A DNA stretch of 19,742 nucleotides, from IMG/VR virus record IMGVR_UViG_2534681835_000041. One strand, 5' to 3'. The notes below the pieces were generated by a model. That model saw only the letters and a list, made by a program, of their open reading frames with translations, made no database searches and had not been told where the DNA came from. The translations under genes and the position numbers were made by a program. Origin of the DNA: a virus. Its lineage: Duplodnaviria; Heunggongvirae; Uroviricota; Caudoviricetes. Each line of letters opens with the position of its first letter. The first letter of the stretch is position 1. Positions 906 through 19,268 of the stretch are shown piece after piece.

Positions 906-934
906 GCGACTTTTAGTGTTCCGCTTGAGAGGCC

Positions 935-1471
935 ATGATGCTTACCCTGGACGAGATAGGTCAATCAGTACGTAACAATATCCAGTTGATTATTGATCAT
1001 GTCGGCTTACCTCTTGCTGTTGGTCCGCTCAGTGATGATGATTACAAGATTCTGTGTGGTGGCTATGGTGAGCTTGAATGGGACTATGCGTTAAGTACCT
1101 ATGGCAACTCCAGAGAAAAGTATGAGTTCTGCATAAAACTTGTTCAGCAAGGTCGGGTTCAGGGAATACCATCAGGAGCAGCAATTTGTGTTTATGGGGT
1201 TGAAGAAAACATCTTTCGTATCCATATGATCGAAAGGTTTTCTAGAGAAGATGAATCTCACCCATTGAAAGGGCGCATGGTTTTACTCACTCTTATGAGT
1301 GCTTTTATATTTTGTAAAGCTGTTGAATGTAAAGTTGTCCACATTGTAGAGCCAGTACCAGAACTGGTGCAGTATTACGAGTCTTTTGGTTTCCGCATGG
1401 AACAGTGCGGTTATGTGATGTCGGCAGTCATTGATGAGCTGCAGGATATCTTTCTTAAATTTGCTCAGTAG
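935..1471 (+). CDS. hypothetical protein with a GNAT-acetyltransferase-like C-terminal region
   Basis: 178-aa ORF; tandem ATGs at 935 and 938 with gagagg at 927-932. C-terminal stretch 'VLLTLMSAFIFCKAVECKVVHIVEPVPELVQYYESFGFR' resembles the GNAT motif A/B region (Y-x-x-x-G-F), but the canonical R/Q-x-x-G-x-G/A is not clean. Family call is tentative. Confidence 0.5.
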   Translation: MMLTLDEIGQSVRNNIQLIIDHVGLPLAVGPLSDDDYKILCGGYGELEWDYALSTYGNSREKYEFCIKLVQQGRVQGIPSGAAICVYGVEENIFRIHMIERFSREDESHPLKGRMVLLTLMSAFIFCKAVECKVVHIVEPVPELVQYYESFGFRMEQCGYVMSAVIDELQDIFLKFAQ

Positions 1472-1667
1472 GTATAGACGAGAAGGGTCTACAAATTGTA
1501 GGATACCCGTCCAGATTACCTTAAAGGTACATCTATGGCAGTCGTTTTGTGCTTAAACTACTAAGAAACGATGTCACCAATCGACATGATCGATTGGCAT
1601 AAGTTAGCGAAACAAGCTAGCTTTAAAGAAAGGGTTAGAGACGCCTTTACTGTCTCGGGAGTTTTCT

Positions 1668-1841
1668 ATGAAAGATCAAAAAGCAACCAAGCCACAGGTT
1701 AAGTTCGACACAATGAAAGCATTCGCAGGTATGGGTGCTGCTGTTGAAGTTCTGATGAAGGCTGCTCCTAATGCGTTCACTCACGCTACTGTCTCTGGTA
1801 AAGAGCAGCAGGGTAAGCTTCGTCGTCGCAAAGCAGCATGA
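1668..1841 (+). CDS. small hypothetical protein (57 aa, Lys/Ala-rich)
   Basis: ATG at 1668 with GGGAG 8-12 nt upstream, TGA at 1839-1841, immediately followed by a strong terminator. Below the 60-aa cutoff of the supplied ORF track; found by hand translation. Confidence 0.4.
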   Translation: MKDQKATKPQVKFDTMKAFAGMGAAVEVLMKAAPNAFTHATVSGKEQQGKLRRRKAA

Positions 1842-1862
1842 TCATAGCTGGTGCTTTTTGAA

Positions 1863-1886
1863 AACCCGCCTTCAGGCGGGTTTTTT
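1863..1886. terminator. bidirectional rho-independent terminator between convergent genes
   Basis: Stem aacccgcc / ggcgggtt with ttca loop, T-run 1881-1886 on + and an A-run upstream giving a T-run on -. Sits between the + 57-aa ORF (ends 1841) and the - PrtN-like gene (ends 1889). Confidence 0.6.
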
Positions 1887-1888
1887 CT

Positions 1889-2170
1889 TTAGTGATGTTC
1901 TTTGTCCTTCTGTTTGACTGTTCTGACCTGTTCCCACTCGATACGTCCTTCTTCTCGCCTTTTGTCTATGTATTCCGCAAGATCTTGAATATTGATGCAA
2001 CGTTTTGCTTTTTGTGATGTGCCGATGCGATATGTTGGAACGGGCAACTTACAAGCGTTTGCTTTTGCTTCTGCCGTGGCTGGACTCATACCAAAGTACT
2101 TTTGGCTAACTGCTGAGAGTTCAATGTTTGGGGTATTGAATTCAGCCATCAGTAAAAACAAGGTGTTCAT
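1889..2170 (-). CDS. PrtN-family (pyocin activator-like) small regulator
   Basis: Motifs 'NTLFLLMAEF...VSQKYFG...LPVPTYRIG.SQKAKRCINIQDLAEYID' match my recollection of the PrtN family. Start chosen at the ATG at 2170 (GGAG 8 nt upstream); the track ORF extends to a GTG at 2197. Confidence 0.55.
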   Translation of the reverse strand: MNTLFLLMAEFNTPNIELSAVSQKYFGMSPATAEAKANACKLPVPTYRIGTSQKAKRCINIQDLAEYIDKRREEGRIEWEQVRTVKQKDKEHH

Positions 2171-2206
2171 AATTTTCTCCATCAAAACCGGCTGCACCCG
2201 GGAAAA

Positions 2207-2779
2207 TCATAATTCTGTGCTGGTGGCAGGAATTAATTTCTGCCAGATAGCGGAAACATATTTTGCCTGATGACGGGCATCAGCCAGGGCGTTGTGCCGT
2301 TCGCCATCGAAAGGCATGTCCATTTTGGGGTCGAATCCGATGGAACGCCCAAGCGTAACGATCGTGCGTACATCGTGGTCATTCCAGTACGCCCACGGGC
2401 AGATTTGTCCTGCTCGCTCGTAAGCTCCACGTAAAATTACGTTGTCGAAGGTGGCCCCGTTACCCCAGACTTTTAAATATTTCGTATTGTCTGCGTGCCG
2501 GTTAATGAAATGGTTTAGTTCTGAGAGAGCATCGCTGATCGACAAAGTATCATCAATACAGATTGCAGCTCGCGCTTCAGGGCTTTGTTTCAACCACCAC
2601 AGGATGGTATCGCCGTCAGGTGTAGCTCCTTGCTTCATAGCACTGTCTAGGCTGACAACCGCATAGAATTCTTGTCCGATGTCTCCGGTTTCTGGAGTGA
2701 AGAACACCGCGCCAATGGAAACGATCGGTGCATCCTTATTTTTCCCCATCGTCTCAAGGTCGATCATTAAGTTGTTCAT
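2207..2779 (-). CDS. phage 3'-5' exonuclease (DnaQ/DEDD-like)
   Basis: N-terminal 'LMIDLETMG' Exo-I-like motif with later acidic/His motifs ('HNALADA'). ATG at 2779 preceded by GGAGG; its start overlaps the stop of the upstream gene (TGATG). Confidence 0.7.
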   Translation of the reverse strand: MNNLMIDLETMGKNKDAPIVSIGAVFFTPETGDIGQEFYAVVSLDSAMKQGATPDGDTILWWLKQSPEARAAICIDDTLSISDALSELNHFINRHADNTKYLKVWGNGATFDNVILRGAYERAGQICPWAYWNDHDVRTIVTLGRSIGFDPKMDMPFDGERHNALADARHQAKYVSAIWQKLIPATSTEL

Positions 2780-3513
2780 CACTTCACCTCCTGCGGCGGT
2801 TCCGGTAGCGGCATCCAGTGAGTTGCTTGCTCAATACCATTACCCGGCTTAATCGTTGCATCTCCGCGCCGAAAGGTGCTTCCGGTATAGCGTGCGGAGC
2901 ATATTAGCGGTTCAACCAGAGAGCTATCGAAATTCACCGAAATAAGCACGTTCTGGCCCTTTTCAGGCATTCGATCACTACAGCTTATCCAACTATCCGG
3001 AGTTCCCGGAGAGTTGCCATTTACATCGAAGTTTGGCTCTGCGTCCTGAACCAAGAGGATGTAACCATTCTTGGCTGTATCAAGTTCTAACGCTTCGGTG
3101 ACGGTGCCGAAATAGCGATTACCTAAATCAGCATCACAAGTGCTTATATCAATGGAAACTTCCATGCCTTCGATTAATTCTGGCAAGTTGTAAGTTTGGC
3201 TTACAGGTTGGCTACCCTGAAGCATGGCGGCGCGGTGACACCAGATAATCCAGCCAAGCGCCATATCCCATGCCATGTATTCTCTATCGCCATTTTTTGC
3301 CCTACGGCGATCTACAGATTCCCCGAAACGCTTCTCCATAAATAATTCATAGGCTGCTCGTTCATCCGATACTGCTGCCAGTGATGCCAGTGTAATTTTT
3401 AATGCGGTAAGCATGTTGTTTTGATCTTCATCGAGTCCGAACGGTATTTCATCCCGTGCTGACTCAATGCTGGTAATCGTGTTCTGTAACCATTCTTTGG
3501 TAAGAGTATTCAT
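2779..3513 (-). CDS. Ea22-like phage protein with C-terminal DUF551-like domain
   Basis: 244-aa ORF; C-terminus '...ATHWMPLPEPP' is the characteristic DUF551 ending; N-terminus 'MNTLTKEWLQNTITSIE' is shared with the paralog at 3760-4176. ATG at 3513 with AGGTGA upstream. Confidence 0.6.
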   Translation of the reverse strand: MNTLTKEWLQNTITSIESARDEIPFGLDEDQNNMLTALKITLASLAAVSDERAAYELFMEKRFGESVDRRRAKNGDREYMAWDMALGWIIWCHRAAMLQGSQPVSQTYNLPELIEGMEVSIDISTCDADLGNRYFGTVTEALELDTAKNGYILLVQDAEPNFDVNGNSPGTPDSWISCSDRMPEKGQNVLISVNFDSSLVEPLICSARYTGSTFRRGDATIKPGNGIEQATHWMPLPEPPQEVK

Positions 3514-3515
3514 AA

Positions 3516-3707
3516 CTATTTCACCTTAATCTCAACATTTCGCAGCTTTAGCTCTACTGGCAAGTCTGACTTTCCTGTTAATGCTAATGCGAGATTTTCA
3601 GGAGTAATGAGAGCTGTTATTGTTTTCCCCATCGCCAGACGAATAATCATTCGTATCTCGCGATCGTCACATGCTCCCGGTCGAACAATTGATATTTGTC
3701 CGTTCAT
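3516..3707 (-). CDS. hypothetical small phage protein (63 aa from the ATG at 3707)
   Basis: In-frame ATG at 3707 with GGAGA 8-9 nt upstream; the track ORF begins at a TTG at 3728. No motif recognised. Confidence 0.4.
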   Translation of the reverse strand: MNGQISIVRPGACDDREIRMIIRLAMGKTITALITPENLALALTGKSDLPVELKLRNVEIKVK

Positions 3708-3759
3708 CTCACTCTCCTTTGATGCCAATGTTTACAGCCTGACAAGCCTCTTTGAGCAC

Positions 3760-4176
3760 TCAGTCAACAGCGTCTTTCCATGCTCCGGTTTCGACTGGCG
3801 GATTTTCACTCTTAACCTGTTCATAGAAGCGCACCGCTTTAATCAATCCTTCGGGTGTCAGTGGCACAGGCTGGGCCGTGAATAACGCCTGAATTTCATA
3901 GTTCGGCCTGTCGTTGCAATCCTCTTTTGTCGGTACATATTTCCAGTCACCAACCCACGGCTTCTCCTGAAAGTTCGTAACGCCTTTTCTCACGTAGCGA
4001 TATCGCCATGTCACCGGTTCGGCTTCCAGCGATACCAGCGCGACTTTAAATGCGGTAAGTACGTTTTTAACCACATCGATTTTGAATACTATTTCATCAC
4101 ATACAAACGATTTATCGTCTACTACCGTTTCAATTCCGGTAATCGTGTTTTGTAGCCATTTGGTTAATTCAGCCAT
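3760..4176 (-). CDS. hypothetical phage protein, N-terminal paralog of the Ea22-like gene
   Basis: 138-aa ORF; N-terminus 'MAELTKWLQNTITGIE' parallels 'MNTLTKEWLQNTITSIE' of 2779-3513. ATG at 4176. Confidence 0.55.
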   Translation of the reverse strand: MAELTKWLQNTITGIETVVDDKSFVCDEIVFKIDVVKNVLTAFKVALVSLEAEPVTWRYRYVRKGVTNFQEKPWVGDWKYVPTKEDCNDRPNYEIQALFTAQPVPLTPEGLIKAVRFYEQVKSENPPVETGAWKDAVD

Positions 4177-4185
4177 TTTTCATTA

Positions 4186-4201
4186 CCGCCCTTTCGGGCG
4201 G
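4186..4201 (-). promoter_or_regulatory. GAAA-tetraloop hairpin between a Shine-Dalgarno-like GGAGA and the ATG at 4176
   Basis: Minus-strand RNA reads caGGAGAccgcccGAAAgggcggtaatgaaaaATG: a 6-bp GC stem with GAAA loop lies between the only SD-like motif and the start codon. Confidence 0.35.
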
Positions 4202-4322
4202 TCTCCTGATGTTCTGAGGGTGCAGGAATCCCTCCGGTTAAGGATTAAATTTTATTTACAGAACTGAATTTAATTATTCAGATATACGTATCTGTAACCT
4301 TACGAACCTACTCACTGGATGC

Positions 4323-4796
4323 CTATTTCATAAAAATAATCCAGTGGGTTTTATCGTTTTTTCCTGTTCGTTGACCGATAACAGGTTTTCTGTCGGTCAG
4401 TACCAATATCTGGCGAACAGGTATTTGCGTTTCATTCCATTTAAAAATCAGAACGCCGGATGGACGCAACACACGAAAGGCTTCTTTAAATCCCTGCCGC
4501 AAATCATCACGCCAGGTATCTTTATTCAGCCGTCCATATTTCTTTCCCATCCAGGCGTTATCACCAACACGCTCAAGATGCGGAGGGTCGAATATAACCA
4601 TCGAAAAAGATGCGTCTGCAAATGGTAGTGCACGAAAATCAGCTATCAGATCAGGACTGATAATCAGGCGTCGTCCATCACACAATGTGTGCTCTTCCTT
4701 TCTGATATCGCTAAATATCGCCCGGTCGTCATTCTTATCGAACCAGAACATGCGACTGCCACAGCACATGTCGAGGATTGCTGCATGTCCAGTCAC
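4323..4796 (-). CDS. small SAM-dependent methyltransferase-like protein (DPPH motif)
   Basis: Motif I-like 'ILDMCCGSRM', then 'FDPPH' (DPPY-type motif IV position) and 'LRPSGVLIF'. Start set at the GTG at 4796 (AGGAGG 6 nt upstream, GTGA overlap with the upstream stop); the track ORF extends to an ATG at 4829 with no RBS. Confidence 0.5.
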   Translation of the reverse strand: MTGHAAILDMCCGSRMFWFDKNDDRAIFSDIRKEEHTLCDGRRLIISPDLIADFRALPFADASFSMVIFDPPHLERVGDNAWMGKKYGRLNKDTWRDDLRQGFKEAFRVLRPSGVLIFKWNETQIPVRQILVLTDRKPVIGQRTGKNDKTHWIIFMK

Positions 4797-5143
4797 TGGC
4801 TGCCTCCTTTGCGAAGCCGTTCCGCCCATTCTTCAAGGGATTTCTCTGCATATTCACCGGACAGGCCATCAATCGGATGCGATTCATTAGCTAACTCTTC
4901 TTTTGCTGACAGAATCATGCGTGTAACGTCGAAAACTTCAGCCAAAGGCTTATTGATAAATCCGTGATTGAAAGCAGCAGCAAGACGGCTTGCGGTATAG
5001 TTAATACCCTCGTTGCGAGCCTCAGCACGTACTTCATCGAATTTACGCACCAGATACTCAGCATTTGTTTCATTCACTTTCAGATCTCGCGGTACACATT
5101 TCCCGCGAAGAAACCCTTCCATTTCGAAAACATTCATGCGCAT
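4793..5143 (-). CDS. hypothetical phage protein (116 aa)
   Basis: ATG at 5143 overlaps the 3' end of the HD-domain gene; stop overlaps the downstream GTG start. Acidic, helical-looking sequence with no recognised motif. Confidence 0.5.
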   Translation of the reverse strand: MRMNVFEMEGFLRGKCVPRDLKVNETNAEYLVRKFDEVRAEARNEGINYTASRLAAAFNHGFINKPLAEVFDVTRMILSAKEELANESHPIDGLSGEYAEKSLEEWAERLRKGGSQ

Positions 5144-5638
5144 TTGTGTAACTCCGATAACTCGTTAAAACGTTCCATAAACATCCCGTAGGCATGGCTA
5201 GGTGCCAGTGGAATCACGTTGAACATCTCTGTTGCCGGGATGCCTTCCAGTACAGGCCAGAAAGAGCCATCATCAAGCCCGAGATCGCGGCGTTCGGTTG
5301 CCAGCATGATAAGATCGGCATATTTCACGGGCGTACTCATAACTGGGGGTAACCCGTATTTCTCACGGATTACGGCGTCAATTTTTTCTTCCATCCGTTT
5401 ATAGTCAGGAAGAAGGCGTTTCAGTGGAGCGGGGATGTCCTGGCAATACGCTTCTGTTGCATCATGCATTAATGCTTCAAAAGCAAATTCCTGCGGTACC
5501 AGCTGGCTGCAAAGAACCGCATGTTGGGCGACGCTGTAGAAGTGCGAAAGATGACCGGCAAAGCGACAGATATTTGAAAGGGAAACCGCGATATCGTTAA
5601 TATCGATGTCGTCTTTATTTATCCTGTCATAATAAAAA
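5134..5638 (-). pseudogene. HD-domain phosphohydrolase (YfdR-like 5'-nucleotidase type), 5'-truncated at the IS boundary
   Basis: The track ORF starts at an internal Met (5469), but the frame stays open upstream to the IS end at 5639 ('...NICRFAGHLSHFYSVAQHAVL...ALMHDATE...', H and HD motifs). No ATG, GTG or TTG precedes the first His motif before the IS. Confidence 0.6.
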
Positions 5639-5692
5639 TGAACCGCCCCGGAAATCCTGGAGACTAAACTCCCTGAGAAAGAGGTAAACAGG

Positions 5693-6019
5693 ATGACTAA
5701 AAATACTCGTTTTTCCCCCGAAGTCCGTCAGCGGGCGATTCGTATGGTTCTGGAAAGTCAGGATGAATATGACTCACAGTGGGCGGCAATTTGTTCCATT
5801 GCCCCAAAGATTGGCTGTACGCCGGAGACTCTGCGTGTCTGGGTTCGCCAGCATGAGCGGGATACCGGGGGCGGTGATGGTGGGCTCACCAGCGCTGAAC
5901 GTCAGCGTCTGAAAGAGCTGGAACGTGAAAATCGTGAACTGCGCCGCAGTAACGATATCCTTCGCCAGGCTTCCGCTTATTTTGCGAAGGCGGAGTTCGA
6001 CCGCCTCTGGAAAAAATGA
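5693..6019 (+). CDS. IS3-family transposase OrfA (HTH, leucine-zipper)
   Basis: 108 aa '[22 protein letters not shown]...[30 protein letters not shown]'; ends in an A6 tract at 6011-6016 overlapping the orfB start. Confidence 0.9.
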
Positions 6020-6906
6020 TGCCACTGCTGGATAAGCTGCGTGAGCAGTACGGGGTCGGACCGGTATGCAGCGAACTGCATATTGCCCCGTCAACGTATT
6101 ACCATTGTCAGCAACAGCGACATCATCCGGATAAACGCAGTGCCCGTGCGCAGCACGACGACTGGCTGAAGAGAGAGATACAGCGCGTATACGATGAAAA
6201 TCATCAGGTGTACGGTGTGCGTAAAGTCTGGCGTCAGTTGTTACGGGAAGGAATCAGGGTGGCCAGATGTACAGTGGCACGTCTCATGGCGGTTATGGGA
6301 CTTGCCGGTGTTCTCCGGGGTAAAAAGGTCCGTACGACCATCAGCCGGAAAGCCGTTGCCGCAGGCGACCGCGTAAACCGTCAGTTCGTGGCAGAACGAC
6401 CTGACCAGCTGTGGGTGGCTGATTTTACTTACGTCAGCACATGGCAGGGCTTCGTCTATGTGGCGTTTATCATTGATGTGTTTGCCGGATACATCGTGGG
6501 GTGGCGGGTCTCATCGTCTATGGAAACGACATTCGTGCTGGATGCGCTGGAGCAGGCGTTGTGGGCCCGTCGTCCGTCTGGCACCATCCATCACAGCGAT
6601 AAAGGCTCTCAGTATGTGTCACTGGCCTATACGGAGCGACTAAAAGAAGCCGGATTACTGGCATCAACAGGGAGTACAGGCGACTCGTATGACAACGCGA
6701 TGGCTGAGAGCATCAATGGTCTTTACAAAGCGGAGGTAATACACCGTAAGAGCTGGAAAAACCGTGCAGAAGTGGAACTGGCCACACTAACGTGGGTGGA
6801 CTGGTATAACAATCGACGATTGCTGGGAAGGCTGGGCCATACTCCTCCGGCAGAAGCAGAAAAAGCTTATTATGCTTCCATCGGAAACGATGATCTGGCA
6901 GCCTGA
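6016..6906 (+). CDS. IS3-family transposase OrfB (DDE integrase core)
   Basis: 296 aa with the rve-type core ('WVADFTYV', 'HSDKGSQY', '[15 protein letters not shown]'); ATG at 6016 overlaps the orfA stop in the -1 frame. Confidence 0.9.
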
Positions 6907-6948
6907 GTTCACAGATAAAACACTCTCCAGGAAACCCGGGGCGGTTCA

Positions 6949-7354
6949 GTTCTTTGACTGGTTCAAAAGAGTGACTGGTTCTGGGTGAATCTCCTGCACT
7001 ACCCCCTGGTGCAACTCCTGCACTACCTGGTGAATTTGCTGCACCAGATAGTGAATTATTTGCACTACTCCCTGGTGAATCTCCTGCACCATCCAGATGA
7101 AGGAGATAGATATTAATTGAGTTACCTTTTTCACCTTTCCGGGTGACTTTTTTTACCAGCCCGGAATCACAAAGGGCCGCAATATGATTCATCACAGAAC
7201 GTTTGCTAATCTCGCACTGATCAGCAATATGCTGGTAGCTGGGCCAGCACTCACCCTGATCGCTGGCATTATCAGCCAGCTTGATCAGAACCAGTTTTCG
7301 CAATGGATTACCCACTCGAATTTTCATCGCTTTAACCATCAGCTCCATACTCAT
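6949..7354 (-). pseudogene. replication initiator O-like gene (N-terminal HTH domain), 3'-truncated by IS copy 1
   Basis: N-terminus 'LRKLVLIKLADNASDQGECWPSYQHIADQCEISKRSVMNHIAALCDSGLV' resembles the N-terminal DNA-binding region of lambda O and related replisome organisers. The ORF continues through iteron-encoded low-complexity sequence and then reads into the IS. ATG at 7354 overlaps the upstream stop. Confidence 0.5.
6983..7094. repeat. five imperfect ~21-25-bp direct repeats (iteron-like) inside the O-like ORF, next to an AT-rich stretch
   Basis: Units built on gtgaat/gtgcaa..tcctgcac start at 6985, 7009, 7030, 7051 and 7076 (spacing 24/21/21/25 bp); an AT-rich segment follows at about 7100-7140. 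Confidence 0.5.
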
Positions 7355-7575
7355 GCTGCACCTCCGAGATGCTTCATGTTTTTTCCGGAGCGAAAGGCTA
7401 TAAGCGGCATACTGACGCGGTAATTACGGCCCAGCGGTTCACAAATCACCTTCTGGCATTCACGGTCAACCAGGCTAACACGTAGAACATGCCCTGCAGG
7501 CGTGGTGTACCACTGACCCGGACGAGGACAACGGAAAGTTTGATTGGTAAACCGTTTGAAAATATTCCGGATCAT
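7351..7575 (-). CDS. hypothetical small protein (74 aa, Cys-containing)
   Basis: ATG at 7575 overlaps the stop of the Rha-domain gene (ATGA), and its own stop overlaps the O-like ATG (ATGA). No motif recognised. Confidence 0.45.
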   Translation of the reverse strand: MIRNIFKRFTNQTFRCPRPGQWYTTPAGHVLRVSLVDRECQKVICEPLGRNYRVSMPLIAFRSGKNMKHLGGAA

Positions 7576-8735
7576 TTGCGCCCCCTTACCTCTGAAGGGT
7601 TCAGCGACAAATTTATGAGGCAGGCCAGCGCCGAAGCATCATTAATATAGTCATATAAGCTAACAGCCAGCGGAGATTCGGCTTTTGCCAACATAGGATA
7701 AAGCTGCTGCAGCCAGACCTGATGAATTGATGAAATGTAGGAATAGAGAACACTGGCGTTATGTGCAACGTCGCTCGGTACAGAGGGCTTTGAAAGCTGT
7801 TTCTCCATCTGGTTAAAGGCATTGATGTATGCCTCTTTGAACTGGGCAGCACGTTTGCCAGTGAAGCCCATTGCCAGGAACGCGAAGCCGTCGCGGGTGA
7901 TGTGGTAGCAAGGAAGTTTGCGAGTACCGCCGTTGGGCTGGTGTACCAAAATTGATGTCTCCGCAAAATTGCGGGCACAAAACTCTGGAGAACAATCCAA
8001 AATGCGGATCTTTTTCAGAACATCGTCATGACGTTTAGAGAAGAAGTCAGCAACAGCCAAAGAAGATGTAACAGCCTGACCATCAACGATGGCAATTTCA
8101 GGTTGAGAGAGGGTTGGGAGAGTAGTCATGGTGACAGCCCCGGTAGTCAGTTTTTCAGAAAACTCACCACATGGGACGCCAATCACAGAGGTGGTGAGAC
8201 GTACAGGGTTGGCGTTACCGGAGACTACCGAACCCGGCCCGACCGAAGTCGGCCCTGTACGCCCCACCATAATTTGGGCGTAGCAATGCTCATGACACGA
8301 AAAAACCGCATGAGCGCGGTTATGCTCAGTAATCAATTTCAGGACGCCAATCCCGGCACCCGCTTTATAAGGTGCCTGAACAGTGTAACGTCCCGGAATG
8401 GCAGAATCAATGTGCTGGTGGTCCTTCACACTCAACAAAATCACGCCTGAATTTCCACAAAGGACTAAAGCACTCATGCGGGTAGTCTTTGCGAAGATAG
8501 ATAACGCGCTGTGTTTCTGGCTCCCAACGAATAACATGAACATAAAGTCCTCTTCCGTCACGAAACCAGCGGTTAAGTTCCTGCACAACTCGCCCCCCAC
8601 AGTCAGGTAAAGTTCTCTGTGGTTACTTACAGCCAGGTGATTTGGTAATCTGCATTCATACCGTAACAACAGGTGTTCAGCGACGCTGACCACCAGCTGT
8701 TGCGACAAACGGTTATTTGCCGTTAAACTGTTCAT
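7572..8735 (-). CDS. Rha-family phage regulatory protein with an unusual ~200-aa N-terminal extension
   Basis: Residues ~205-300 ('PEIAIVDGQAVTSSLAVADFFSKRHDDVLKKIRIL...YHITRDGFAFLAMGFTGKRAAQFKEAYINAFNQME') match the Rha domain. The 387-codon frame is open from an ATG at 8735 that overlaps the CII-like stop (ATGA). Alternative internal start at 8129 would give a 185-aa Rha-only protein. Confidence 0.5.
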   Translation of the reverse strand: MNSLTANNRLSQQLVVSVAEHLLLRYECRLPNHLAVSNHRELYLTVGGELCRNLTAGFVTEEDFMFMLFVGSQKHSALSIFAKTTRMSALVLCGNSGVILLSVKDHQHIDSAIPGRYTVQAPYKAGAGIGVLKLITEHNRAHAVFSCHEHCYAQIMVGRTGPTSVGPGSVVSGNANPVRLTTSVIGVPCGEFSEKLTTGAVTMTTLPTLSQPEIAIVDGQAVTSSLAVADFFSKRHDDVLKKIRILDCSPEFCARNFAETSILVHQPNGGTRKLPCYHITRDGFAFLAMGFTGKRAAQFKEAYINAFNQMEKQLSKPSVPSDVAHNASVLYSYISSIHQVWLQQLYPMLAKAESPLAVSLYDYINDASALACLINLSLNPSEVRGRK

Positions 8736-9283
8736 GCGTTAGTTTCTCCACAGACACAAAACGCCACGACGCCCGGAGCTGCACACTCGCGGGCGTCACT
8801 CTTTTCTGGAGCGCAAAAGATTTTGTAGACCAGTGCTGCATGCTCCTGGAGCTTCGAAATTGACAGATACAACTCATCATTAATTGCTGTCTGCTCGTGT
8901 GGCTCCACTACCCCATCTTCGATTGCCGAACGAATCTGCTTTGAGTAACTCCCGATCTGTTCGATGACTTCCAGCAGGCGCTGGTTTATATCGGCGTTCT
9001 CTACTTCCTCAAGTTCAGGAAGCGATACAAACACCCCACCAGCAGACTGTGCGACAGCATCCGCAATGTAGTGAGTGCCAGCCGCGCGCTGTAAAATCAT
9101 TGCCCATCCCAGCGGGAAAATCTGATCGCCATCTGCACGAAGGCGGTTGAATAAAGCGTTCTCTGTTACATCCAGCCACTCAGCAGCTTCAGCGTAACCC
9201 CCCGGCAACGCCGCGATAGTTTTTCTGACAGCTTTCACGTACCACTCAGGCTGTTTTTCCACTTTCCAGTGATGCTTACCCAC
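8732..9283 (-). CDS. phage regulatory CII-like protein (CP76-type), tentative
   Basis: 183 aa; pattern '...ALFNRLRADGD...GGVFVSLPELEE...' resembles the CII/CP76 family as I recall it. GTG start at 9283 with AGGAG 7 nt upstream; overlaps the cro-like 3' end by 8 nt. Confidence 0.5.
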   Translation of the reverse strand: MGKHHWKVEKQPEWYVKAVRKTIAALPGGYAEAAEWLDVTENALFNRLRADGDQIFPLGWAMILQRAAGTHYIADAVAQSAGGVFVSLPELEEVENADINQRLLEVIEQIGSYSKQIRSAIEDGVVEPHEQTAINDELYLSISKLQEHAALVYKIFCAPEKSDARECAAPGVVAFCVCGETNA

Positions 9284-9536
9284 GGCTTATCTCCTGTTCC
9301 TGTGGTTTAAACCCATTCTGGTTTTGGCTAGATTGAAAACGTGCCGGATAAAGAATCTGCATTTCGCTGATTTCACCCTTAAAAAAATTGGCCAGACGTT
9401 CTGCAAGATCGATAGATGGAATTTGTTCCAGTCTTTCAATACGACTCAGCGTCGCTGTATTGACCTGAACGCCCGCAGCAACATGCTGCAAAGTAAATCC
9501 GTGCGCCTTACGCACATTCCGTAATGGTGATTGCAT
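9276..9536 (-). CDS. Cro-like HTH (XRE-family) regulator
   Basis: 86 aa with HTH 'FTLQHVAAGVQVNTATLSRIE'; ATG at 9536 with GGAGG 5 nt upstream; transcribed divergently from the CI-like gene across an operator-rich spacer. Confidence 0.65.
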   Translation of the reverse strand: MQSPLRNVRKAHGFTLQHVAAGVQVNTATLSRIERLEQIPSIDLAERLANFFKGEISEMQILYPARFQSSQNQNGFKPQEQEISRG

Positions 9537-9633
9537 ATAACCTCCACATATTGCGTGATGAGCATATTATTTCACGCAAATATTTTGCGCAAGTTGATTT
9601 GCTTAACGCGCAATAAAGAAATGTAATAAACGC
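9537..9633. promoter_or_regulatory. oR-like immunity control region with divergent promoters (pR-like toward cro, pRM-like toward cI)
   Basis: Inverted repeats TTGCGTGA(9551-9558)/TCACGCAA(9572-9579), palindrome TTGCGCAA (9585-9592), TTGC-N7-GCAA (9599-9613). Minus-strand TTGCGC(-35)-17-TAATAT(-10). Plus-strand TTGCTT-18-TAATAA ending 6 nt before the cI ATG, which has no SD. Confidence 0.5.
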
Positions 9634-10326
9634 ATGAACATAGGAAATCGAGTCAGACAACTTCGCCAGGCGAAGAACATGAAAATCGCCGATCTCGCTG
9701 AAGCAATAGGAGTGGATGCGGCGAATATCTCGCGCCTCGAAACAGGTAAGCAGAAACAATTCACTGAACAAGCCCTGAGTAATATTGCCAGGAGCTTAGG
9801 TGTTGATATTGCTGATCTCTTTACCTCAGACCTCAAAAGTAATACTGTATGTAAAAACAGTATTAGTGAGGATGTTGCGCAGGTGAAGGATGTATTCCGT
9901 ATTGAAATGCTGGATGTCAGTGCCAGTGCGGGAAATGGCCTTATCCAGGGCGGTGATGTCATTGATGTGATTCATGCCATTGAATACAGAACTGATAATG
10001 CTGTATCGATGTTTGGTGGACGACCAGCAAATCACATTAAAGTTATCAACGTTCGTGGGGACAGTATGTGTCCAACCATTGAGCCAGGAGATCTCATCTT
10101 CGTTGATATCAGTATCAATCAGTTTGATGGGGATGGTATATATGTATTTGGTTTTGATGATAAAATTTACGTCAAACGACTGCAAATGATACCTGATAAA
10201 CTGCTGGTAATTTCTGATAATCAGATTTACCGCGAATGGGGAATTACCAGCGAAAACGAACATCGGTTTATGGTCTTTGGAAAGGTCTTAATCAGTCAGT
10301 CACAAACCCTTAAGCGACACAATTAA
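9634..10326 (+). CDS. CI-like phage repressor (HTH plus S24 LexA-type autopeptidase domain)
   Basis: N-terminal HTH ('MKIADLAEAIGVDAANISRLETG'); C-terminal S24 motifs 'VRGDSMCPTIEPGD' (Ser nucleophile) and 'KIYVKRL' (Lys). Confidence 0.8.
   Translation: MNIGNRVRQLRQAKNMKIADLAEAIGVDAANISRLETGKQKQFTEQALSNIARSLGVDIADLFTSDLKSNTVCKNSISEDVAQVKDVFRIEMLDVSASAGNGLIQGGDVIDVIHAIEYRTDNAVSMFGGRPANHIKVINVRGDSMCPTIEPGDLIFVDISINQFDGDGIYVFGFDDKIYVKRLQMIPDKLLVISDNQIYREWGITSENEHRFMVFGKVLISQSQTLKRHN
9843..9862. promoter_or_regulatory. near-consensus LexA (SOS) box inside the cI coding sequence
   Basis: TACTGTATGTAAAAACAGTA, against consensus TACTGT-(AT)4-ACAGTA: both outer hexamers match exactly. A possible -35 TTTACC at 9820-9825 places the box over a -10 position (TACTGT). 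Confidence 0.5.
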
Positions 10327-10348
10327 CCCCCTACCTCAACATCAATTA

Positions 10349-10368
10349 GCCACCAGAAGGTGGCTTTT
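10349..10368 (+). terminator. rho-independent terminator downstream of cI
   Basis: Stem gccacc / ggtggc with agaa loop, followed by TTTT at 10365-10368; 23 nt after the cI stop. Confidence 0.6.
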
Positions 10369-10382
10369 CATTACCCACCAAA

Positions 10383-10435
10383 TTGCATATCTCGCAATAA
10401 AAACACTTGCACAATGCGCAACTTCATTTTATCTT
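10383..10435 (+). promoter_or_regulatory. oL-like operator pair with a candidate pL-like promoter
   Basis: Two perfect TTGC-N7-GCAA sites (10383-10397, 10407-10421), the same motif as at 9599-9613; TTGCAC(10407)-17-TATCTT(10430-10435) as a possible rightward promoter. Confidence 0.45.
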
Positions 10436-10846
10436 TCTTTCCAGACCTACAAACAAGGTACTAACAAAATTTGGTTGTAACACGGCGTATGGCACATGCG
10501 TCGTTAGCGGTCTGGGGACGTTAAAGGGGACAATCCACTCCTTGCTCGGGCAAACAAACCAGGTAGCCGGAATGTGCAAGTCAATGAGGATGCTGATAAG
10601 ACGCCTAACCAGCGTGGCGATTCGGTTTGACGCCTGGGAAGAGACCAGGGTGCAACGATGAGGGCATTTATGGAACCGCGACAAAGTGTGGTGCCGTAAC
10701 TGGCTAAGTGCTCTCAGCGTTGTGGTAATCCGCGAAATGGCGCGGCGGTAAGTATGGCGGGGTTATTCCTTCCCCGTTGAGGACACCGGGTTGTCAGGTT
10801 GACCATACGCTTAAGTGACAAGCCCACCACAACAGCCACTGCTTTG

Positions 10847-10892
10847 GCGGTACCAGTTTGTACACTTGCTTCCGGCTGGTACCGCTCTTTTT
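10847..10892 (+). terminator. strong hairpin plus T-run in the leader upstream of the first rightward gene; overlaps a boxA-like motif
   Basis: Perfect 10-bp stem gcggtaccag(10847-10856)/ctggtaccgc(10876-10885), 19-nt loop, then TCTTTTT. CGCTCTTTTTAC at 10884-10895 resembles boxA (CGCTCTTTAACAA). Confidence 0.5.
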
Positions 10893-11029
10893 ACAAAACA
10901 GAGAAGAGCATCACCGGACGACGGGCTCATAACCCAATCCACCCGGGCGGCTGCCACCGCAGGTGTTCTTCTCTGTTTTGTGGAGAAACCAACCGACCTT
11001 GCAGGGTCGATATGATGAGGAGCAGCAAA

Positions 11030-11392
11030 ATGGCTAGCGAACGCAGTACTGATGTGCAGGCATTTATCGGGGAGCTGGACGGCGGCGTATTTGAAACCAA
11101 AATCGGCGCAGTTCTCAGTGAAGTCGCTTCCGGTGTGATGAACACGAAAACCAAAGGTAAGGTCTCACTCAACCTGGAAATCGAACCATTTGATGAGAAC
11201 CGTGTGAAAATCAAACACAAACTCTCATATGTTCGCCCGACTAACCGCGGGAAAATTTCCGAAGAAGACACCACCGAAACGCCGATGTATGTCAATCGCG
11301 GTGGTCGCCTGACTATTCTGCAGGAAGACCAGGGACAATTACTGACTCTTGCCGGTGAACCTGACGGAAAACTCCGCGCAGCAGGTCATTAA
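11030..11392 (+). CDS. hypothetical phage protein (120 aa)
   Basis: ATG at 11030 with GAGGAG 7 nt upstream; the track ORF extends upstream to 10799 but that part is low-complexity with no RBS. Size and position resemble a CPS-53 YfdP-type gene, recalled from memory only. Confidence 0.5.
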   Translation: MASERSTDVQAFIGELDGGVFETKIGAVLSEVASGVMNTKTKGKVSLNLEIEPFDENRVKIKHKLSYVRPTNRGKISEEDTTETPMYVNRGGRLTILQEDQGQLLTLAGEPDGKLRAAGH

Positions 11393-11457
11393 TATCGTTC
11401 TTAATTAACTGATTATTTATCTCATCACTGAATATCTTTATATAGTGAGGACTTATT

Positions 11458-12282
11458 ATGTCTCAGAACTTAGACGCAACCGCAATTAATCAAATCCATG
11501 CCCTTATTTCTGCTCAGGGTGTTAATGAAATTATCAGTAAGATTGGTGCCGATGCTGTGGCATTGCCTGAGAATTTCCGCATTCATGATCTGGAAAAATT
11601 TAATTTAAATCGCTTCCGTTTCCGTGGTGCGCTTTCCACTGCCAGCATCGATGACTTTACCCGTTATTCTAAAGATCTTGCAGATGAAGGCACCCGCTGC
11701 TTTATTGATGCTGATAATATGCGTGCCGTCAGTGTGCTTAACCTGGGTACTATTGATGAACCAGGTCACGCAGATAACACCGCCACTCTCAAACTGAAAA
11801 AGACAGCACCGTTCTCTGCTCTGTTGTCTGTTAATGGCGAGCGTAACTCCCAGAAATCACTGACAGAATGGATTGAAGACTGGGCCGACTACCTTGTGGG
11901 CTTTGATGCTAATGGTGACACCATTCAGGCAACAAAAGCGGCTGCGGCGGTCCGTAAAATCACGATTGAAGCAAACCAGACCGCTGATTTTGAAGATAAT
12001 GACTTCAGCGGCAAACGCTCCCTGATGGAGTCTGTCGAAGCGAAGACCAAAGACATTATGCCAGTGGCATTTGAATTTAAATGCATTCCGTTTGAAGGTC
12101 TGAAAGAACGTCCGTTTAAATTACGCCTCAGCATTATCACTGGCGATCGTCCGGTACTGGTTCTGCGCATTATTCAGCTGGAGGCGGTGCAGGAAGAAAT
12201 GGCTAACGAATTTCGTGATCTGCTTGTTGAGAAATTCAAGGACAGCAAAGTAGAAACCTTTATTGGTACTTTCACCGCCTGA
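11458..12282 (+). CDS. hypothetical phage protein (274 aa; possibly YfdQ/DUF2303-like)
   Basis: ATG at 11458 with GAGG 7 nt upstream; long ORF with ordinary composition. The family assignment rests on size and context recall only. Confidence 0.6.
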
Positions 12283-12409
12283 TTTCATTACTGCAAATGC
12301 CCCTGAGGGGGCATTTATGGAAACGTAATTTACTCAATAATCGCCGGATGGTGAGGGATTCTTTTTACCAGAATTCAGCGCGGTGCAGCGCATATACGTG
12401 GAGAACAAA

Positions 12410-12853
12410 ATGTCATTTATTAAAACTTTTTCCGGGAAACCAGTCAATGAACCAATAGCTGTTGGTGAATCTGCTGATGAGTCTGTGCGAGTTCGTTCAA
12501 ACCGACCGGAATACTCTCCGGAGTTTGAGCAGGCATGGCTGGCATATCCCAAACGTGCTGGTGGCAATTCAAAATCTGCAGCCTTCAAAGCCTGGAAAGC
12601 CCGTTTGAATGAGGGGGTAAACCCCGAAACCATGCTGGAAGGTGTGAAACGCTACGCGGGCTGGGTATCTGCGATGGGTAACAGCGGCACACAATTTGTG
12701 AAACAGGCTGTCACGTTCTTTGGTCCGGATCGTCATTTCGAAGAATCCTGGGAAGTTCCTGCGGTATCTGCAGCCAGACGTGAGGACCCGTACTTCAAAG
12801 CCAGTTACGACAACGTGGACTACAGCCAGATCCCGGCAGGATTCAGGGGGTGA
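12410..12853 (+). CDS. hypothetical phage protein (147 aa) with 'FEQAWLAYPKRAGG..KSAAFKAWKA' motif
   Basis: ATG at 12410 with GGAG 6 nt upstream (the track ORF starts at a GTG at 12383). The motif resembles ones I associate with phage replication-associated proteins, unverified. Confidence 0.5.
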   Translation: MSFIKTFSGKPVNEPIAVGESADESVRVRSNRPEYSPEFEQAWLAYPKRAGGNSKSAAFKAWKARLNEGVNPETMLEGVKRYAGWVSAMGNSGTQFVKQAVTFFGPDRHFEESWEVPAVSAARREDPYFKASYDNVDYSQIPAGFRG

Positions 12854-14316: not shown

Positions 14317-15207
14317 TCAGGCTGCCAGATCATCGTTTCCGATGGAAGCATAATAAGCTTTTTCTGCTTCTGCCGGAGGAGTATGGCCCAGCCTTCCCAG
14401 CAATCGTCGATTGTTATACCAGTCCACCCACGTTAGTGTGGCCAGTTCCACTTCTGCACGGTTTTTCCAGCTCTTACGGTGTATTACCTCCGCTTTGTAA
14501 AGACCATTGATGCTCTCAGCCATCGCGTTGTCATACGAGTCGCCTGTACTCCCTGTTGATGCCAGTAATCCGGCTTCTTTTAGTCGCTCCGTATAGGCCA
14601 GTGACACATACTGAGAGCCTTTATCGCTGTGATGGATGGTGCCAGACGGACGACGGGCCCACAACGCCTGCTCCAGCGCATCCAGCACGAATGTCGTTTC
14701 CATAGACGATGAGACCCGCCACCCCACGATGTATCCGGCAAACACATCAATGATAAACGCCACATAGACGAAGCCCTGCCATGTGCTGACGTAAGTAAAA
14801 TCAGCCACCCACAGCTGGTCAGGTCGTTCTGCCACGAACTGACGGTTTACGCGGTCGCCTGCGGCAACGGCTTTCCGGCTGATGGTCGTACGGACCTTTT
14901 TACCCCGGAGAACACCGGCAAGTCCCATAACCGCCATGAGACGTGCCACTGTACATCTGGCCACCCTGATTCCTTCCCGTAACAACTGACGCCAGACTTT
15001 ACGCACACCGTACACCTGATGATTTTCATCGTATACGCGCTGTATCTCTCTCTTCAGCCAGTCGTCGTGCTGCGCACGGGCACTGCGTTTATCCGGATGA
15101 TGTCGCTGTTGCTGACAATGGTAATACGTTGACGGGGCAATATGCAGTTCGCTGCATACCGGTCCGACCCCGTACTGCTCACGCAGCTTATCCAGCAGTG
15201 GCATCAT
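14317..15207 (-). CDS. IS3-family transposase OrfB (copy 2)
   Basis: Identical 296-aa translation to 6016-6906. Confidence 0.9.
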
Positions 15208-15530
15208 TTTTTCCAGAGGCGGTCGAACTCCGCCTTCGCAAAATAAGCGGAAGCCTGGCGAAGGATATCGTTACTGCGGCGCAGTTCACGATTTTCACGT
15301 TCCAGCTCTTTCAGACGCTGACGTTCAGCGCTGGTGAGCCCACCATCACCGCCCCCGGTATCCCGCTCATGCTGGCGAACCCAGACACGCAGAGTCTCCG
15401 GCGTACAGCCAATCTTTGGGGCAATGGAACAAATTGCCGCCCACTGTGAGTCATATTCATCCTGACTTTCCAGAACCATACGAATCGCCCGCTGACGGAC
15501 TTCGGGGGAAAAACGAGTATTTTTAGTCAT
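15204..15530 (-). CDS. IS3-family transposase OrfA (copy 2)
   Basis: Identical 108-aa translation to 5693-6019. Confidence 0.9.
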
Positions 15531-17450: not shown

Positions 17451-18203
17451 ATGAACCTTGAAGCCTTACCGAAATATTACTCCCCGAAATCTCCAAAACT
17501 GAGCGATGACGCACCGGCGACAGGCTCTGGTGGTTTAACAATTACGGATGTGATGGCTGCGCAGGGGATGGTGCAGTCAAAAGCACCGCTTGGGTTTGCT
17601 TTATTCCTGGCAAAAGTTGGTGTTCAGGATCCTCAGTTTGCGATTGAAGGTCTGCTCAATTACGCGATGGCACTGGATAACCCGACATTGAATAAATTGA
17701 GTGAAGAAACCCGGCTACAGATCATTCCTTACCTTGTGAATTTTGCCTTTGCTGATTATTCCAGGTCTGCGGCAAGTAAGGCTCGCTGTGAGCATTGTGC
17801 TGGTACTGGATTTCATAATGTATTGCGCGAGGTGGTGAAACACTCCAGAAGCGGGGAATCTGTTATTAAGGAAGAGTGGGTGAAGGAACTATGTCAGCAT
17901 TGTCATGGTAAGGGAGAAGTCAGCACAGCATGCAGAGGGTGCAAGGGTAAAGGTATTGTCCTGGATGAAAAAAGAACCCGGCTTCATGGCACGCCTGTTT
18001 ATAAGGTTTGTGGGCGTTGCAATGGAAACCGGTTTAGCCGTTTACCAACCACACTGGCGCGGCTTCATGTCCAGAAGCTGGTACCAGACCTGACGGATTA
18101 TCAGTGGTACAAAGGATATGCAGATGTCATTGATAAACTGGTTACAAAGTGCTGGCAGGAAGAAGCATATGCAGAGATACAATTGAGAAAGGTGACAAGA
18201 TAA
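17451..18203 (+). CDS. putative late-gene antiterminator (Q-like), with four CxxCxGxG repeats
   Basis: Position immediately upstream of a pR'/tR'-like promoter-terminator pair and the tRNA island. Contains CEHCAGTG, CQHCHGKG, CRGCKGKG, CGRCNGNR (a DnaJ-type zinc-finger pattern). ATG at 17451 with GGAG upstream. Function inferred mainly from context. Confidence 0.45.
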   Translation: MNLEALPKYYSPKSPKLSDDAPATGSGGLTITDVMAAQGMVQSKAPLGFALFLAKVGVQDPQFAIEGLLNYAMALDNPTLNKLSEETRLQIIPYLVNFAFADYSRSAASKARCEHCAGTGFHNVLREVVKHSRSGESVIKEEWVKELCQHCHGKGEVSTACRGCKGKGIVLDEKRTRLHGTPVYKVCGRCNGNRFSRLPTTLARLHVQKLVPDLTDYQWYKGYADVIDKLVTKCWQEEAYAEIQLRKVTR

Positions 18204-18234
18204 ATGGTTTTCGCCGAAGATGACGACATGATGC

Positions 18235-18263
18235 TTGCATTTTTCAAAAAATATGGATAAGAT
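18235..18263 (+). promoter_or_regulatory. candidate pR'-like late promoter
   Basis: TTGCAT (18235-18240), 17-bp spacer, TAAGAT (18258-18263), 32 nt after the Q-like stop and about 45 nt upstream of the terminator. Confidence 0.4.
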
Positions 18264-18309
18264 TTTCCCAACGATGGGCTTTGTATGTCTACCGTTGATA
18301 AGATTTAAG

Positions 18310-18333
18310 AACCCGCCGATGCGCGGGTTTTTT
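18310..18333 (+). terminator. rho-independent terminator (tR'-like)
   Basis: Stem aacccgc / gcgggtt followed by a 6-T run. Confidence 0.65.
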
Positions 18334-18513
18334 GTACCCAGAATCCTGTGAGCTATACGGAAAGTACACAGAAAGGAAGGTGCGACCACAATTAATAACA
18401 AAATCTTAAAAATTGCACATGGCACTATTAGTTTTCTAAATATTGTGTATTTTTTGTATTGCAGGATGACCCTGTAACGAATTTTGCGTAACAGCATTTT
18501 GCTCTACGAGTTT

Positions 18514-18542
18514 GCCAGCCTCCCCCAGTGGCTGGCTTTTTT
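18514..18542 (+). terminator. second rho-independent terminator
   Basis: Stem gccagcc / ggctggc, 9-nt loop, TTTTTT at 18537-18542. Confidence 0.6.
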
Positions 18543-18544
18543 AT

Positions 18545-18664
18545 GTCTGTAGCGTCAAAGCAGCAATGTCGCTGGGGCGTCGTGCAATTGGCGTTGAGCT
18601 GGAGACTGAACGTTTTGAGCAGACGGTCAGGGAAGTTCAGGATTTAGTCAGTCAGAACGGATGA
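18545..18664 (+). pseudogene. C-terminal remnant of a DNA methyltransferase gene
   Basis: Translates to '...AMSLGRRAIGVELETERFEQTVREVQDLVSQNG*', which looks like the extreme C-terminus of N4/N6 DNA methylases ('GRR.IG.E' motif). No upstream body of the gene is present. Confidence 0.4.
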
Positions 18665-18666
18665 TA

Positions 18667-18695
18667 TTGCAGGATTAGTTACGTACCGTTATTAT
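18667..18695 (+). promoter_or_regulatory. candidate promoter for the tRNA cluster
   Basis: TTGCAG (18667-18672), 17-bp spacer, TATTAT (18690-18695); tRNA 5' end at 18705. Confidence 0.45.
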
Positions 18696-18704
18696 CCTGC
18701 GCCC

Positions 18705-18780
18705 GGCCCTTTAGCTCAGTGGTGAGAGCGAGCGACTCATAATCGCCAGGTCGCTGGTTCAAATCCAGCAAGGGCCACCA
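18705..18780 (+). tRNA. ileZ: tRNA-Ile2 (anticodon CAT, lysidine type) or tRNA-Met
   Basis: 76-nt cloverleaf folded by hand: acceptor ggccctt/aagggcc, D-stem gctc/gagc, anticodon loop ctCATaa, T-loop ttcaaat, encoded CCA. Close to my recollection of E. coli ileX. Symbol given by analogy with the Stx-phage ileZ-argN-argO cluster. Confidence 0.85.
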
Positions 18781-18789
18781 TATCACATA

Positions 18790-18866
18790 CCGCCATTAGC
18801 TCATCGGGATAGAGCGTCAGCCTTCGAAGCTGGCTGTGCGGGGTTCAAGTCCCCGATGGCGGTCCA
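18790..18866 (+). tRNA. argN: tRNA-Arg (anticodon TCG as read here)
   Basis: 77-nt cloverleaf: acceptor ccgccat/atggcgg, D-stem gctc/gagc, anticodon loop cTTCGaa, T-arm cgggg-ttcaagt-ccccg, encoded CCA. Symbol by analogy. Confidence 0.8.
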
Positions 18867-18879
18867 TTATCAGCATCAT

Positions 18880-18956
18880 GCGTTGTTAGCTCAGCCGGAC
18901 AGAGCAATTGCCTTCTAAGCAATCGGTCACTGGTTCGAATCCAGTACAACGCGCCA
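18880..18956 (+). tRNA. argO: tRNA-Arg (anticodon TCT, reads AGA)
   Basis: 77-nt cloverleaf: acceptor gcgttgt/acaacgc, anticodon stem attgc/gcaat with loop cTTCTaa, T-arm actgg-ttcgaat-ccagt, encoded CCA. Symbol by analogy. Confidence 0.85.
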
Positions 18957-19243: not shown

Positions 19244-19268
19244 GGCTCCTCATCGCAGGAGCCTTTTT
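19244..19268 (+). terminator. rho-independent terminator in the tRNA-to-nanS-p gap
   Basis: Stem ggctcct / aggagcc with 6-nt loop, followed by TTTTT. Confidence 0.6.

Follow-up and report, generated by a model that had tools for sequence, protein, structure and literature searches.

Positions 9,537 to 10,435 of a 19,742-nucleotide stretch of Caudoviricetes DNA (IMG/VR record IMGVR_UViG_2534681835_000041; the whole stretch is called the window below) make up a prophage immunity region of 899 bp. The region follows the order of phage lambda seen from the opposite strand, that is, cro, the right operator region (OR), the divergently transcribed repressor gene cI, a terminator, the left operator region (OL) with the promoter pL, and the early-left genes. 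Inverted repeats of the form TTGC-N7-GCAA lie on both sides of cI, and we consider them very probably to be the operators of the immunity switch of a lambdoid E. coli prophage, bound by dimers of the repressor CI and presumably also by Cro. Around them were found a divergent repressor–cro gene pair, a repressor with helix-turn-helix (HTH) and S24 domains, and repeated operators over the early promoters in both OR and OL, as in other lambdoid switches.

The perfect TTGC-N7-GCAA sites that an initial annotation of the region had listed at 9599–9613, 10383–10397 and 10407–10421 (here OR-C, OL2 and OL1) are all present, as is its near-match TTGC-N7-GCAT at 9551–9565 (OR-A; Table 1). Each site comprises 15 bp with a central base, its half-sites being 11 bp, or about one helical turn, apart. 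The centres of OL1 and OL2 are separated by 24 bp; those of OR-A and OR-C, the two full sites of OR, lie at 9558 and 9606, 48 bp apart. The window contains four perfect matches, against 0.78 expected, a count reached in one of 200 shuffles; the fourth match (18908–18922) sits in a tRNA gene and is unrelated to the switch. Taken alone, the window is only moderately convincing, and the strong evidence is the comparison with relatives.

Table 1. Features of the immunity region (window coordinates; PWM, score against the position weight matrix described in the text).
Feature	Position	Strand	Description
cro-like gene	9276–9536	−	86 aa, HTH_3; first gene of the pR operon
Intragenic cro site (candidate fifth, weak operator)	9501–9515		cro codons 8–12; GTGCGCCTTACGCAC, core TGCG-N5-CGCA; PWM 7.3
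OR-A, cro-proximal operator	9551–9565		TTGCGTGATGAGCAT; TTGC-N7-GCAT; PWM 16.7
pR (predicted)	−35 TTGCGC 9592–9587; −10 TAATAT 9569–9564	−	start ~9557 (9556–9559)
Conserved decamer	9585–9594		TTGCGCAAGT; invariant 12/12; 9587–9592 = predicted pR −35, 17 bp from −10
OR-C, cI-proximal operator	9599–9613		TTGCTTAACGCGCAA; perfect TTGC-N7-GCAA; PWM 18.8
pRM (predicted)	−35 TTGCTT 9599–9604; −10 TGTAAT 9622–9627	+	start 9634 = A of cI ATG
cI repressor gene	9634–10326	+	230 aa; N-terminal XRE/434-type HTH, C-terminal LexA/UmuD-type S24 autopeptidase
Intrinsic terminator 3' of cI	10348–10370	+	AGCCACC-AGAA-GGTGGCT (10348–10365), then TTTTC
OL2, promoter-distal left operator	10383–10397		TTGCATATCTCGCAA; perfect TTGC-N7-GCAA; PWM 20.8
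OL1, promoter-proximal left operator	10407–10421		TTGCACAATGCGCAA; perfect TTGC-N7-GCAA; PWM 16.7
pL (predicted)	−35 TTGCAC 10407–10412; −10 TATCTT 10430–10435	+	start ~10442–10443

A genome scan, together with a search of phages by the CI protein, yielded distant copies of the region whose full-length CI is 67–96% identical. Their sources are Citrobacter, Pseudescherichia, Klebsiella, Buttiauxella and Trabulsiella, as well as Salmonella phage ST64B, a Klebsiella phage and Citrobacter phage phiNP. The OR alignment consists of 12 non-redundant homologous regions, with Escherichia and Shigella also among their sources, and is free of gaps. All 16 half-site columns are invariant in these homologues, as opposed to one of the 14 spacer columns (Fisher p = 1.5e-7); elsewhere in the intergenic OR, 21 of 58 columns are invariant, and nearly all of these belong to TTGCGCAAGT, to TGTAAT or to the pR −10 element.

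The individual sites behave alike. OR-A reads TTGC-N7-GCAT at a fixed position, with a variable spacer, in 12/12 homologues. OR-C is a perfect site 35 nt (36 nt in the relatives L010 and L094) upstream of the cI ATG in 15/15 close homologues, again with a variable spacer, and a perfect site occupies the same place in a more distant Yersinia phage (L097). The half-sites of OL1 are invariant, and its spacer variable, in 10/10 aligned relatives, and OL2 is found in most relatives, 22–24 bp from OL1, sometimes with GCAT or GCAC. Among 80 near-identical viral contigs, the polymorphisms found in OR-A and OR-C all fall in spacer positions, and OL1 of phage mEp460 differs from that of the window solely in the spacer. 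A 17-bp position weight matrix (PWM) built from the relatives alone, with the window excluded, ranks OR-A, OR-C, OL1 and OL2 as the top four of 19,726 window positions (scores 16.7–20.8; next 12.1). The family consensus is TTGCG-N5-CGCAA, with TTGC/GCAA as its invariant core.

The claim that the sites overlap −10 and −35 elements of divergent promoters is supported by conserved hexamers that coincide with the sites at fixed spacing. The predicted promoters pR, pRM and pL share one conserved geometry, TTGCnn followed after 17 bp by TAnnnT or TGTAAT, and therefore each −35 element appears to double as an operator half-site. OR-A would span about −8 to +7 of pR, OR-C −35 to −21 of pRM and OL1 −35 to −21 of pL, the left half-sites of OR-C and OL1 being the −35 elements of pRM and pL, respectively. 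That OR-A is GCAT in every lineage can be understood because its final AT also ends the pR −10 element, which reads TAACAT in some relatives; the column pattern AT(A/G)TTA fits a minus-strand TAnnAT. The predicted pR start leaves cro a 20-nt leader with the Shine–Dalgarno sequence GGAGG (the complement of 9541–9545). At pL, TAnnnT follows TTGCnn after 17 bp in 10/10 relatives, and the promoter would drive the early-left operon (yfdP, yfdQ). A plus-strand promoter called by the scan, TCCACA-16-TATTAT (9543–9570), was considered as pRM and rejected because the variable A/G column fits a minus-strand −10 only; relatives carry G at the essential −11 A.

The initial annotation had further held that cI is leaderless from a pRM-like promoter, and comparison supports this. 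There is no Shine–Dalgarno sequence 5' of the ATG at 9634; TGTAAT is invariant in the 12 homologues and lies 6 nt before the cI ATG in 10/12 and 7 nt before it in 2/12; and the prophage e14 of E. coli K-12 has the same geometry. Over its first 15 residues, CI is conserved at the protein level and can be aligned with helix 1 of the designed 434-repressor-like DNA-binding domain dh434, which rules out the downstream cI start annotated in mEp460. The cI mRNA thus looks leaderless from the predicted pRM.

The middle of OR is less regular. The palindrome TTGCGCAA, noted earlier at 9585–9592, is present and is conserved as the decamer TTGCGCAAGT, but it does not stand as a full operator in the phage of the window, where the mid-OR PWM score is 0.1. 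The decamer carries back-to-back half-sites, and the palindrome is best read as the pR −35 element plus half-site(s). Some relatives have weak, overlapping full sites in mid-OR, at −21 and −14 from OR-C. A row of three adjacent OR operators spaced by about 23–24 bp was not found, with just OR-A and OR-C scoring. We also rejected CGCAAATATTTTGCG (9575–9589), of inverted polarity and at the exact midpoint between OR-A and OR-C, as an OR2-like third site; its left part is unconserved and there is no PWM site.

A candidate fifth operator lies inside cro, with its centre (9508) 50 bp from OR-A and at about +49 from the predicted pR start. It ranks ninth of the 19,726 positions in the window; both outermost bases are changed in the lineage of the window, and the site may therefore be weak here. 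The version in relatives departs from TTGC-N7-GCAA at one position at most (at none in L009 and L094) and is third to fifth in the PWM ranking of each relative's locus. Codon usage shows apparent selection on the DNA of this site: codon 8 is GTG or TTG (Val/Leu) and codon 11 GCG or TCG (Ala/Ser), the third base being G in 10/10, while Arg9 is always CGN and other Arg columns mix CGN with AGR. Within codons 4–55, the sole invariant third positions are those in the site. Since the sequence is conserved, not merely its complementarity, an operator is favoured here over an RNA hairpin.

Two weaker matches deserve mention. The stretch ATGTAATAAACGCAT (9621–9635) has the weak operator-like form ATGT-N7-GCAT (PWM 4.9, rank 12), spans the predicted pRM −10 and the cI start codon, lies 22 bp from the OR-C centre and is partly conserved (CGCATG in most relatives); it may serve as a weak auxiliary operator or be coincidental. 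The fifth-best PWM match, TTGCTAATCTCGCAC (7203–7217; 12.1), was rejected as an operator. Found within the N-terminal part of the split replication gene, and equally so in mEp460, it probably matches by chance and is retained by coding constraint.

The following mechanism is suggested by the arrangement of the sites. CI bound at OR-A, on the −10/+1 part of pR, would block cro and the genes downstream of it (the CII-like gene, the isrK and C4 RNAs and the Rha-family gene). At OL1, CI would cover the pL −35 element, and OL2, 24 bp upstream, is placed so that it might help; at this spacing the binding of lambda CI dimers is cooperative. OR-C, over the pRM −35 element, would allow CI to repress its own synthesis and Cro to switch cI off. 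The repressor would be translated from a leaderless mRNA transcribed from pRM, and RecA-stimulated self-cleavage at Ala99-Gly100 would lift repression. OL2 lies upstream of pL and the GCAA halves lie in promoter spacers; because both are thereby outside the sequence constraint of sigma-70, the symmetry of the sites points to a dimeric HTH protein. The same module occurs in the viable phages mEp460, the PhiR phages, Stx2a_1447 and SfII.

Several points weigh against the assignment of these sites as operators or against parts of the mechanism. OR-C, a perfect match to the core, overlaps the −35 element of a promoter that has to be on in a lysogen, and pRM activity in the lysogen is left unexplained by the sequence. 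OR is without the adjacent OR1–OR2 pair that is the basis of cooperativity and of pRM activation in lambda. The predicted pR, pRM and pL match the promoter consensus at only about 7–8 of 12 positions, a simple consensus scan calls none of the three, and the TGTAAT of pRM has an atypical G at −11 in place of the canonical A. Matches with one mismatch show no enrichment over the window as a whole (16 versus 14.3), and a pattern-blind test, in which any 4-Nk-4 palindrome counted if it occurred three or more times in the two intergenic regions, was passed by 56 of 5000 dinucleotide shuffles (p ~0.011). Binding or transcription data on these operators were not found in the searchable literature. 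A different logic for the switch, with single operators dispersed some 48–50 bp apart around pR (OR-C at about −49, OR-A at about −1 and the codon-maintained cro site at about +49), no OR1–OR2 pair and a pRM that is only auto-repressed, is conceivable but rather unlikely in our judgement. If it were true, the stability of lysogeny could come from the cooperative OL pair, from OL–OR or higher-order CI assemblies, or from the isrK/C4/Rha layer.

Those two within-window figures are also what speaks for a short palindrome that clusters by chance in A+T-rich intergenic DNA, an explanation that is effectively refuted by the position-specific conservation over 12 lineages and by the ranking of the sites with a matrix that leaves the window out. 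It might be argued instead that TTGC marks merely the −35 hexamers of three similar promoters and is conserved through recognition by RNA polymerase, all the more as TTGCnn stands exactly 17 bp from a conserved TAnnnT or TGTAAT at pR, pRM and pL. The GCAA half on the far side of the 7-bp gap is no less invariant, though it lies in promoter spacers, and OR-A (−8 to +7 of pR) and OL2 (about 45–59 bp 5' of the pL start) are full sites without a −35 role; we regard this account as very improbable.

That the palindromes act in RNA, as hairpins or terminators, is more improbable still. The scan does flag minus-strand 10421–10407 and 9516–9500 as terminator-like hairpins, but the conserved stems measure only 4–5 bp, the additional pairing in 10407–10421 is lost in relatives through the variable spacer, a specific sequence is conserved with no compensatory changes, and OL2 and OR-C lie upstream of the predicted transcription starts. 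We rejected both calls as terminators; they arise from the palindromes themselves, and relatives do not keep them as hairpins. The rival that keeps most weight, although still improbable, is that the sites are real operators for CI only, for the Cro-like protein only, or for another regulator such as the CP76-family (CII-like) or Rha-family protein. The binding protein cannot be assigned from sequence, and CI and Cro are just 23% identical (over the aligned N-terminal 66 residues). Their recognition helices nevertheless have A-x-(I/L)-S-R-(L/I)-E in common, with its S-R-x-E core, and in characterised lambdoid switches CI and Cro share operators, both of which count against a single-protein site. 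Against another regulator, the operators go with the cI/cro module rather than with the genes around it: the sites of SfII are the same but its early-left genes differ, and e14 has a YmfL protein (CP76 family) like that of the window, yet different sites.

The domain content of the proteins agrees with the roles given to them. CI contains the Pfam domains HTH_3/HTH_26 and Peptidase_S24 (E = 5.9e-19), and its autopeptidase residues are present (Ala99-Gly100, Ser144 in GDSM and Lys181 in VKRL). Among solved structures in the PDB it matches UmuD, and its N-terminal domain aligns to dh434 (1sq8; E = 2e-4); apart from generic XRE and UmuD matches this search returned nothing, and that with Cro gave no match. 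The divergent cro and cI are separated by 97 bp. Beyond cro, the minus strand carries the CP76-family (CII-like) gene, the isrK and C4 RNAs (Rfam) and an Ash/Rha-family gene. The terminator of cI is kept in relatives and annotated in phage SfII; 3' of it come a short A+T-rich stretch and then the plus-strand early-left genes yfdP (~11030) and yfdQ (11458–12282).

Some 590 nt between the predicted pL start and yfdP (10442–11030, plus strand) contain no convincing open reading frame (ORF). No Rfam match was obtained in 10380–11120 at a permissive threshold, and the folding of this leader is not unusual (z = −1.25). Relatives have a different conserved leader 3' of pL, ...AACAGGCAGGACGCCCACGAAGTAGCC..., which is common to e14. 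On the other side of the switch, isrK (8375–8299) and the C4 antisense RNA (8274–8187), both on the minus strand, lie inside a 387-aa ORF annotated as Rha (7572–8735), of which the Ash and Rha domains begin at residues 117 and 223. The start of the Rha-family protein probably lies downstream of the two RNAs, and the locus resembles, by analogy, a C4-controlled antirepressor layer of the P1/P7 type beyond cro and the CII-like gene.

Relative to mEp460, window positions 6949–12438, with the whole immunity region, are inverted with respect to both flanks: mEp460 263–5761 is collinear with the inverted segment, while mEp460 1–265 matches 12702 to 12438 and 5752–6368 matches 5654 to 5035. The breakpoints thus lie at ~5654/6949 and 12438, within window positions 5035–12702. 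The replication gene is in two pieces and yfdR is separated from yfdP/yfdQ; as a consequence of the inversion, transcription of the pR and pL operons runs into genes that are not their normal neighbours, and the prophage is probably defective, with the immunity module intact. Two inverted copies of the insertion sequence (IS) IS1203 (IS3 family), each with an ALIL frameshift pseudoknot (5974–6090 and 15133–15249), occupy ~5693–6906 (plus) and ~14317–15530 (minus); one copy is at the left inversion junction, and the right junction (12438) is without an IS. Further along, 17451–19334 holds a Q-type antiterminator gene, then tRNA-Ile and two tRNA-Arg genes (18705–18953), followed by STnc100 (19066–19274) and the anti-sRNA AgvB (19334–19275), a layout that we take to resemble that around stx in Shiga-toxin phages. 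The matching O111 record shows no toxin-gene annotation in the interval from the tRNAs to the gene after them.

The module is widespread. The region is 99–100% identical to E. coli O111 prophages, 96–99% to phages mEp460, PhiR47_1, phiSTEC1575-Stx2k, 1720a-02 and Stx2a_1447/WGPS2, and 90% to Shigella phage SfII; 700 of 5,426 complete E. coli genomes carry at least 80% of a 1.7-kb region, and 446 viral contigs encode a relative of the CI of the window. Its carriers include the Stx2a-/Stx2k-converting phages Stx2a_1447/WGPS2 and phiSTEC1575 and the serotype-converting SfII, and Salmonella phage ST64B has the module with a diverged repressor. In the searchable literature on e14/ymfK, SfV, ST64B, mEp460 and the motif itself, these operators are nowhere described, although a subscription journal may contain such a report. 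As far as we can tell, this is a standard CI/Cro switch with an apparently unreported binding specificity, in a common immunity type. The general understanding of phage switches is unchanged by these operators, and their use is practical: the consensus assigns prophages to immunity groups from sequence, predicts cross-repression among the prophages of poly-lysogenic enterohaemorrhagic E. coli, and offers concrete sites for testing the inducibility of these Shiga-toxin phages.

A close model is lambda. As in lambda, divergent cI and cro about 100 bp apart are served by back-to-back promoters (predicted here) with inverted-repeat operators over them, CI is an HTH plus S24 protein of the self-cleaving type with an apparently leaderless mRNA, and a second operator cluster lies beyond cI over a pL oriented as cI, its sites 24 bp apart from centre to centre. 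The predicted pR and pRM starts are ~77 bp apart, and those of lambda 82 bp. Unlike in lambda, the operator measures 15 bp rather than 17 bp, OL consists of two sites, OR has two full sites 48 bp apart in place of three adjacent ones, the cI-proximal full site covers the pRM −35 element with none at the OR2-like activating position, and the terminator and pL directly follow cI without rex genes. Activator sites of lambda CII are direct repeats, TTGC-N6-TTGC, flanking the −35 element; this type of site was rejected here, the repeats being inverted with N7 and the CII-like protein of the CP76 family, and a single TTGC-N6-TTGC in the window (9478–9491, minus strand, inside cro) corresponds to chance frequency (1 versus 1.42 expected). 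A further difference from lambda is that the CII-like protein here belongs to the CP76 family and that an N gene was not identified, the same situation as described for the related SfII/SfV types in the SfIV genome paper (PMC3851460).

The motif was first proposed to define a probable repressor-binding specificity, and its half-site sequence differs from those of 933W, 434 and e14. Operators of phage 434 read ACAA-N6-TTGT. They have in common with the present sites the four-base half-sites, the XRE-type HTH of the repressor (here the predicted binding protein, with an N-terminal domain that aligns to the 434-like dh434) and variable central bases, uncontacted in 434; half-site sequence and spacing (N7 instead of N6) are different, and the sequence similarity is just generic. 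The 933W operator is 15 bp long and has rotational symmetry around its central base pair; its outer blocks are conserved, its centre less so. Its conserved block covers positions 2–5 (G-C at 2, A-T at 3 and 4), and of the five natural sites three belong to OR and two to OL, with no OL3 (PMC3317979, PMC5977221). Judged by that published description, the present switch is alike in its 15-bp symmetric site, its two-site OL and its occurrence in prophages of enterohaemorrhagic E. coli, and unlike in its half-site sequence, hence its specificity, and in lacking the three adjacent OR sites of 933W.

In the lactococcal phage TP901-1, CI acts at three dispersed single operators, OR, OL and OD (PMC7250872), and is a hexamer without a peptidase domain (PMC7250872, PMC4941734). 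Dispersed single operators, not adjacent triplets, are what the two switches share; the repressor here is LexA-like and the intragenic site a weak candidate. The OD of TP901-1 lies downstream, inside the cro-analogue gene, a position that the candidate intragenic cro site would resemble.

The cryptic prophage e14 (switch at 2085–3040, minus strand, of the K-12 sequence L091) has the same scaffold. Its repressor and cro genes (ymfK/cohE and ymfT/croE) are divergent and are followed, after cro, by the CII-like ymfL; a palindrome starts 35 nt before the repressor ATG, and a −10-like hexamer 6 nt before it hints at a leaderless ymfK mRNA too; 3' of the repressor gene come a terminator and, beyond it, a promoter with TGTAC-type repeats. 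Its repressor, however, is only 23% identical to the CI of the window, and its perfect palindrome is TTGTACC-N5-GGTACAA, of another immunity specificity. The palindrome therefore differs along with the repressor on the same scaffold, which looks like a natural specificity swap, as expected of operators.

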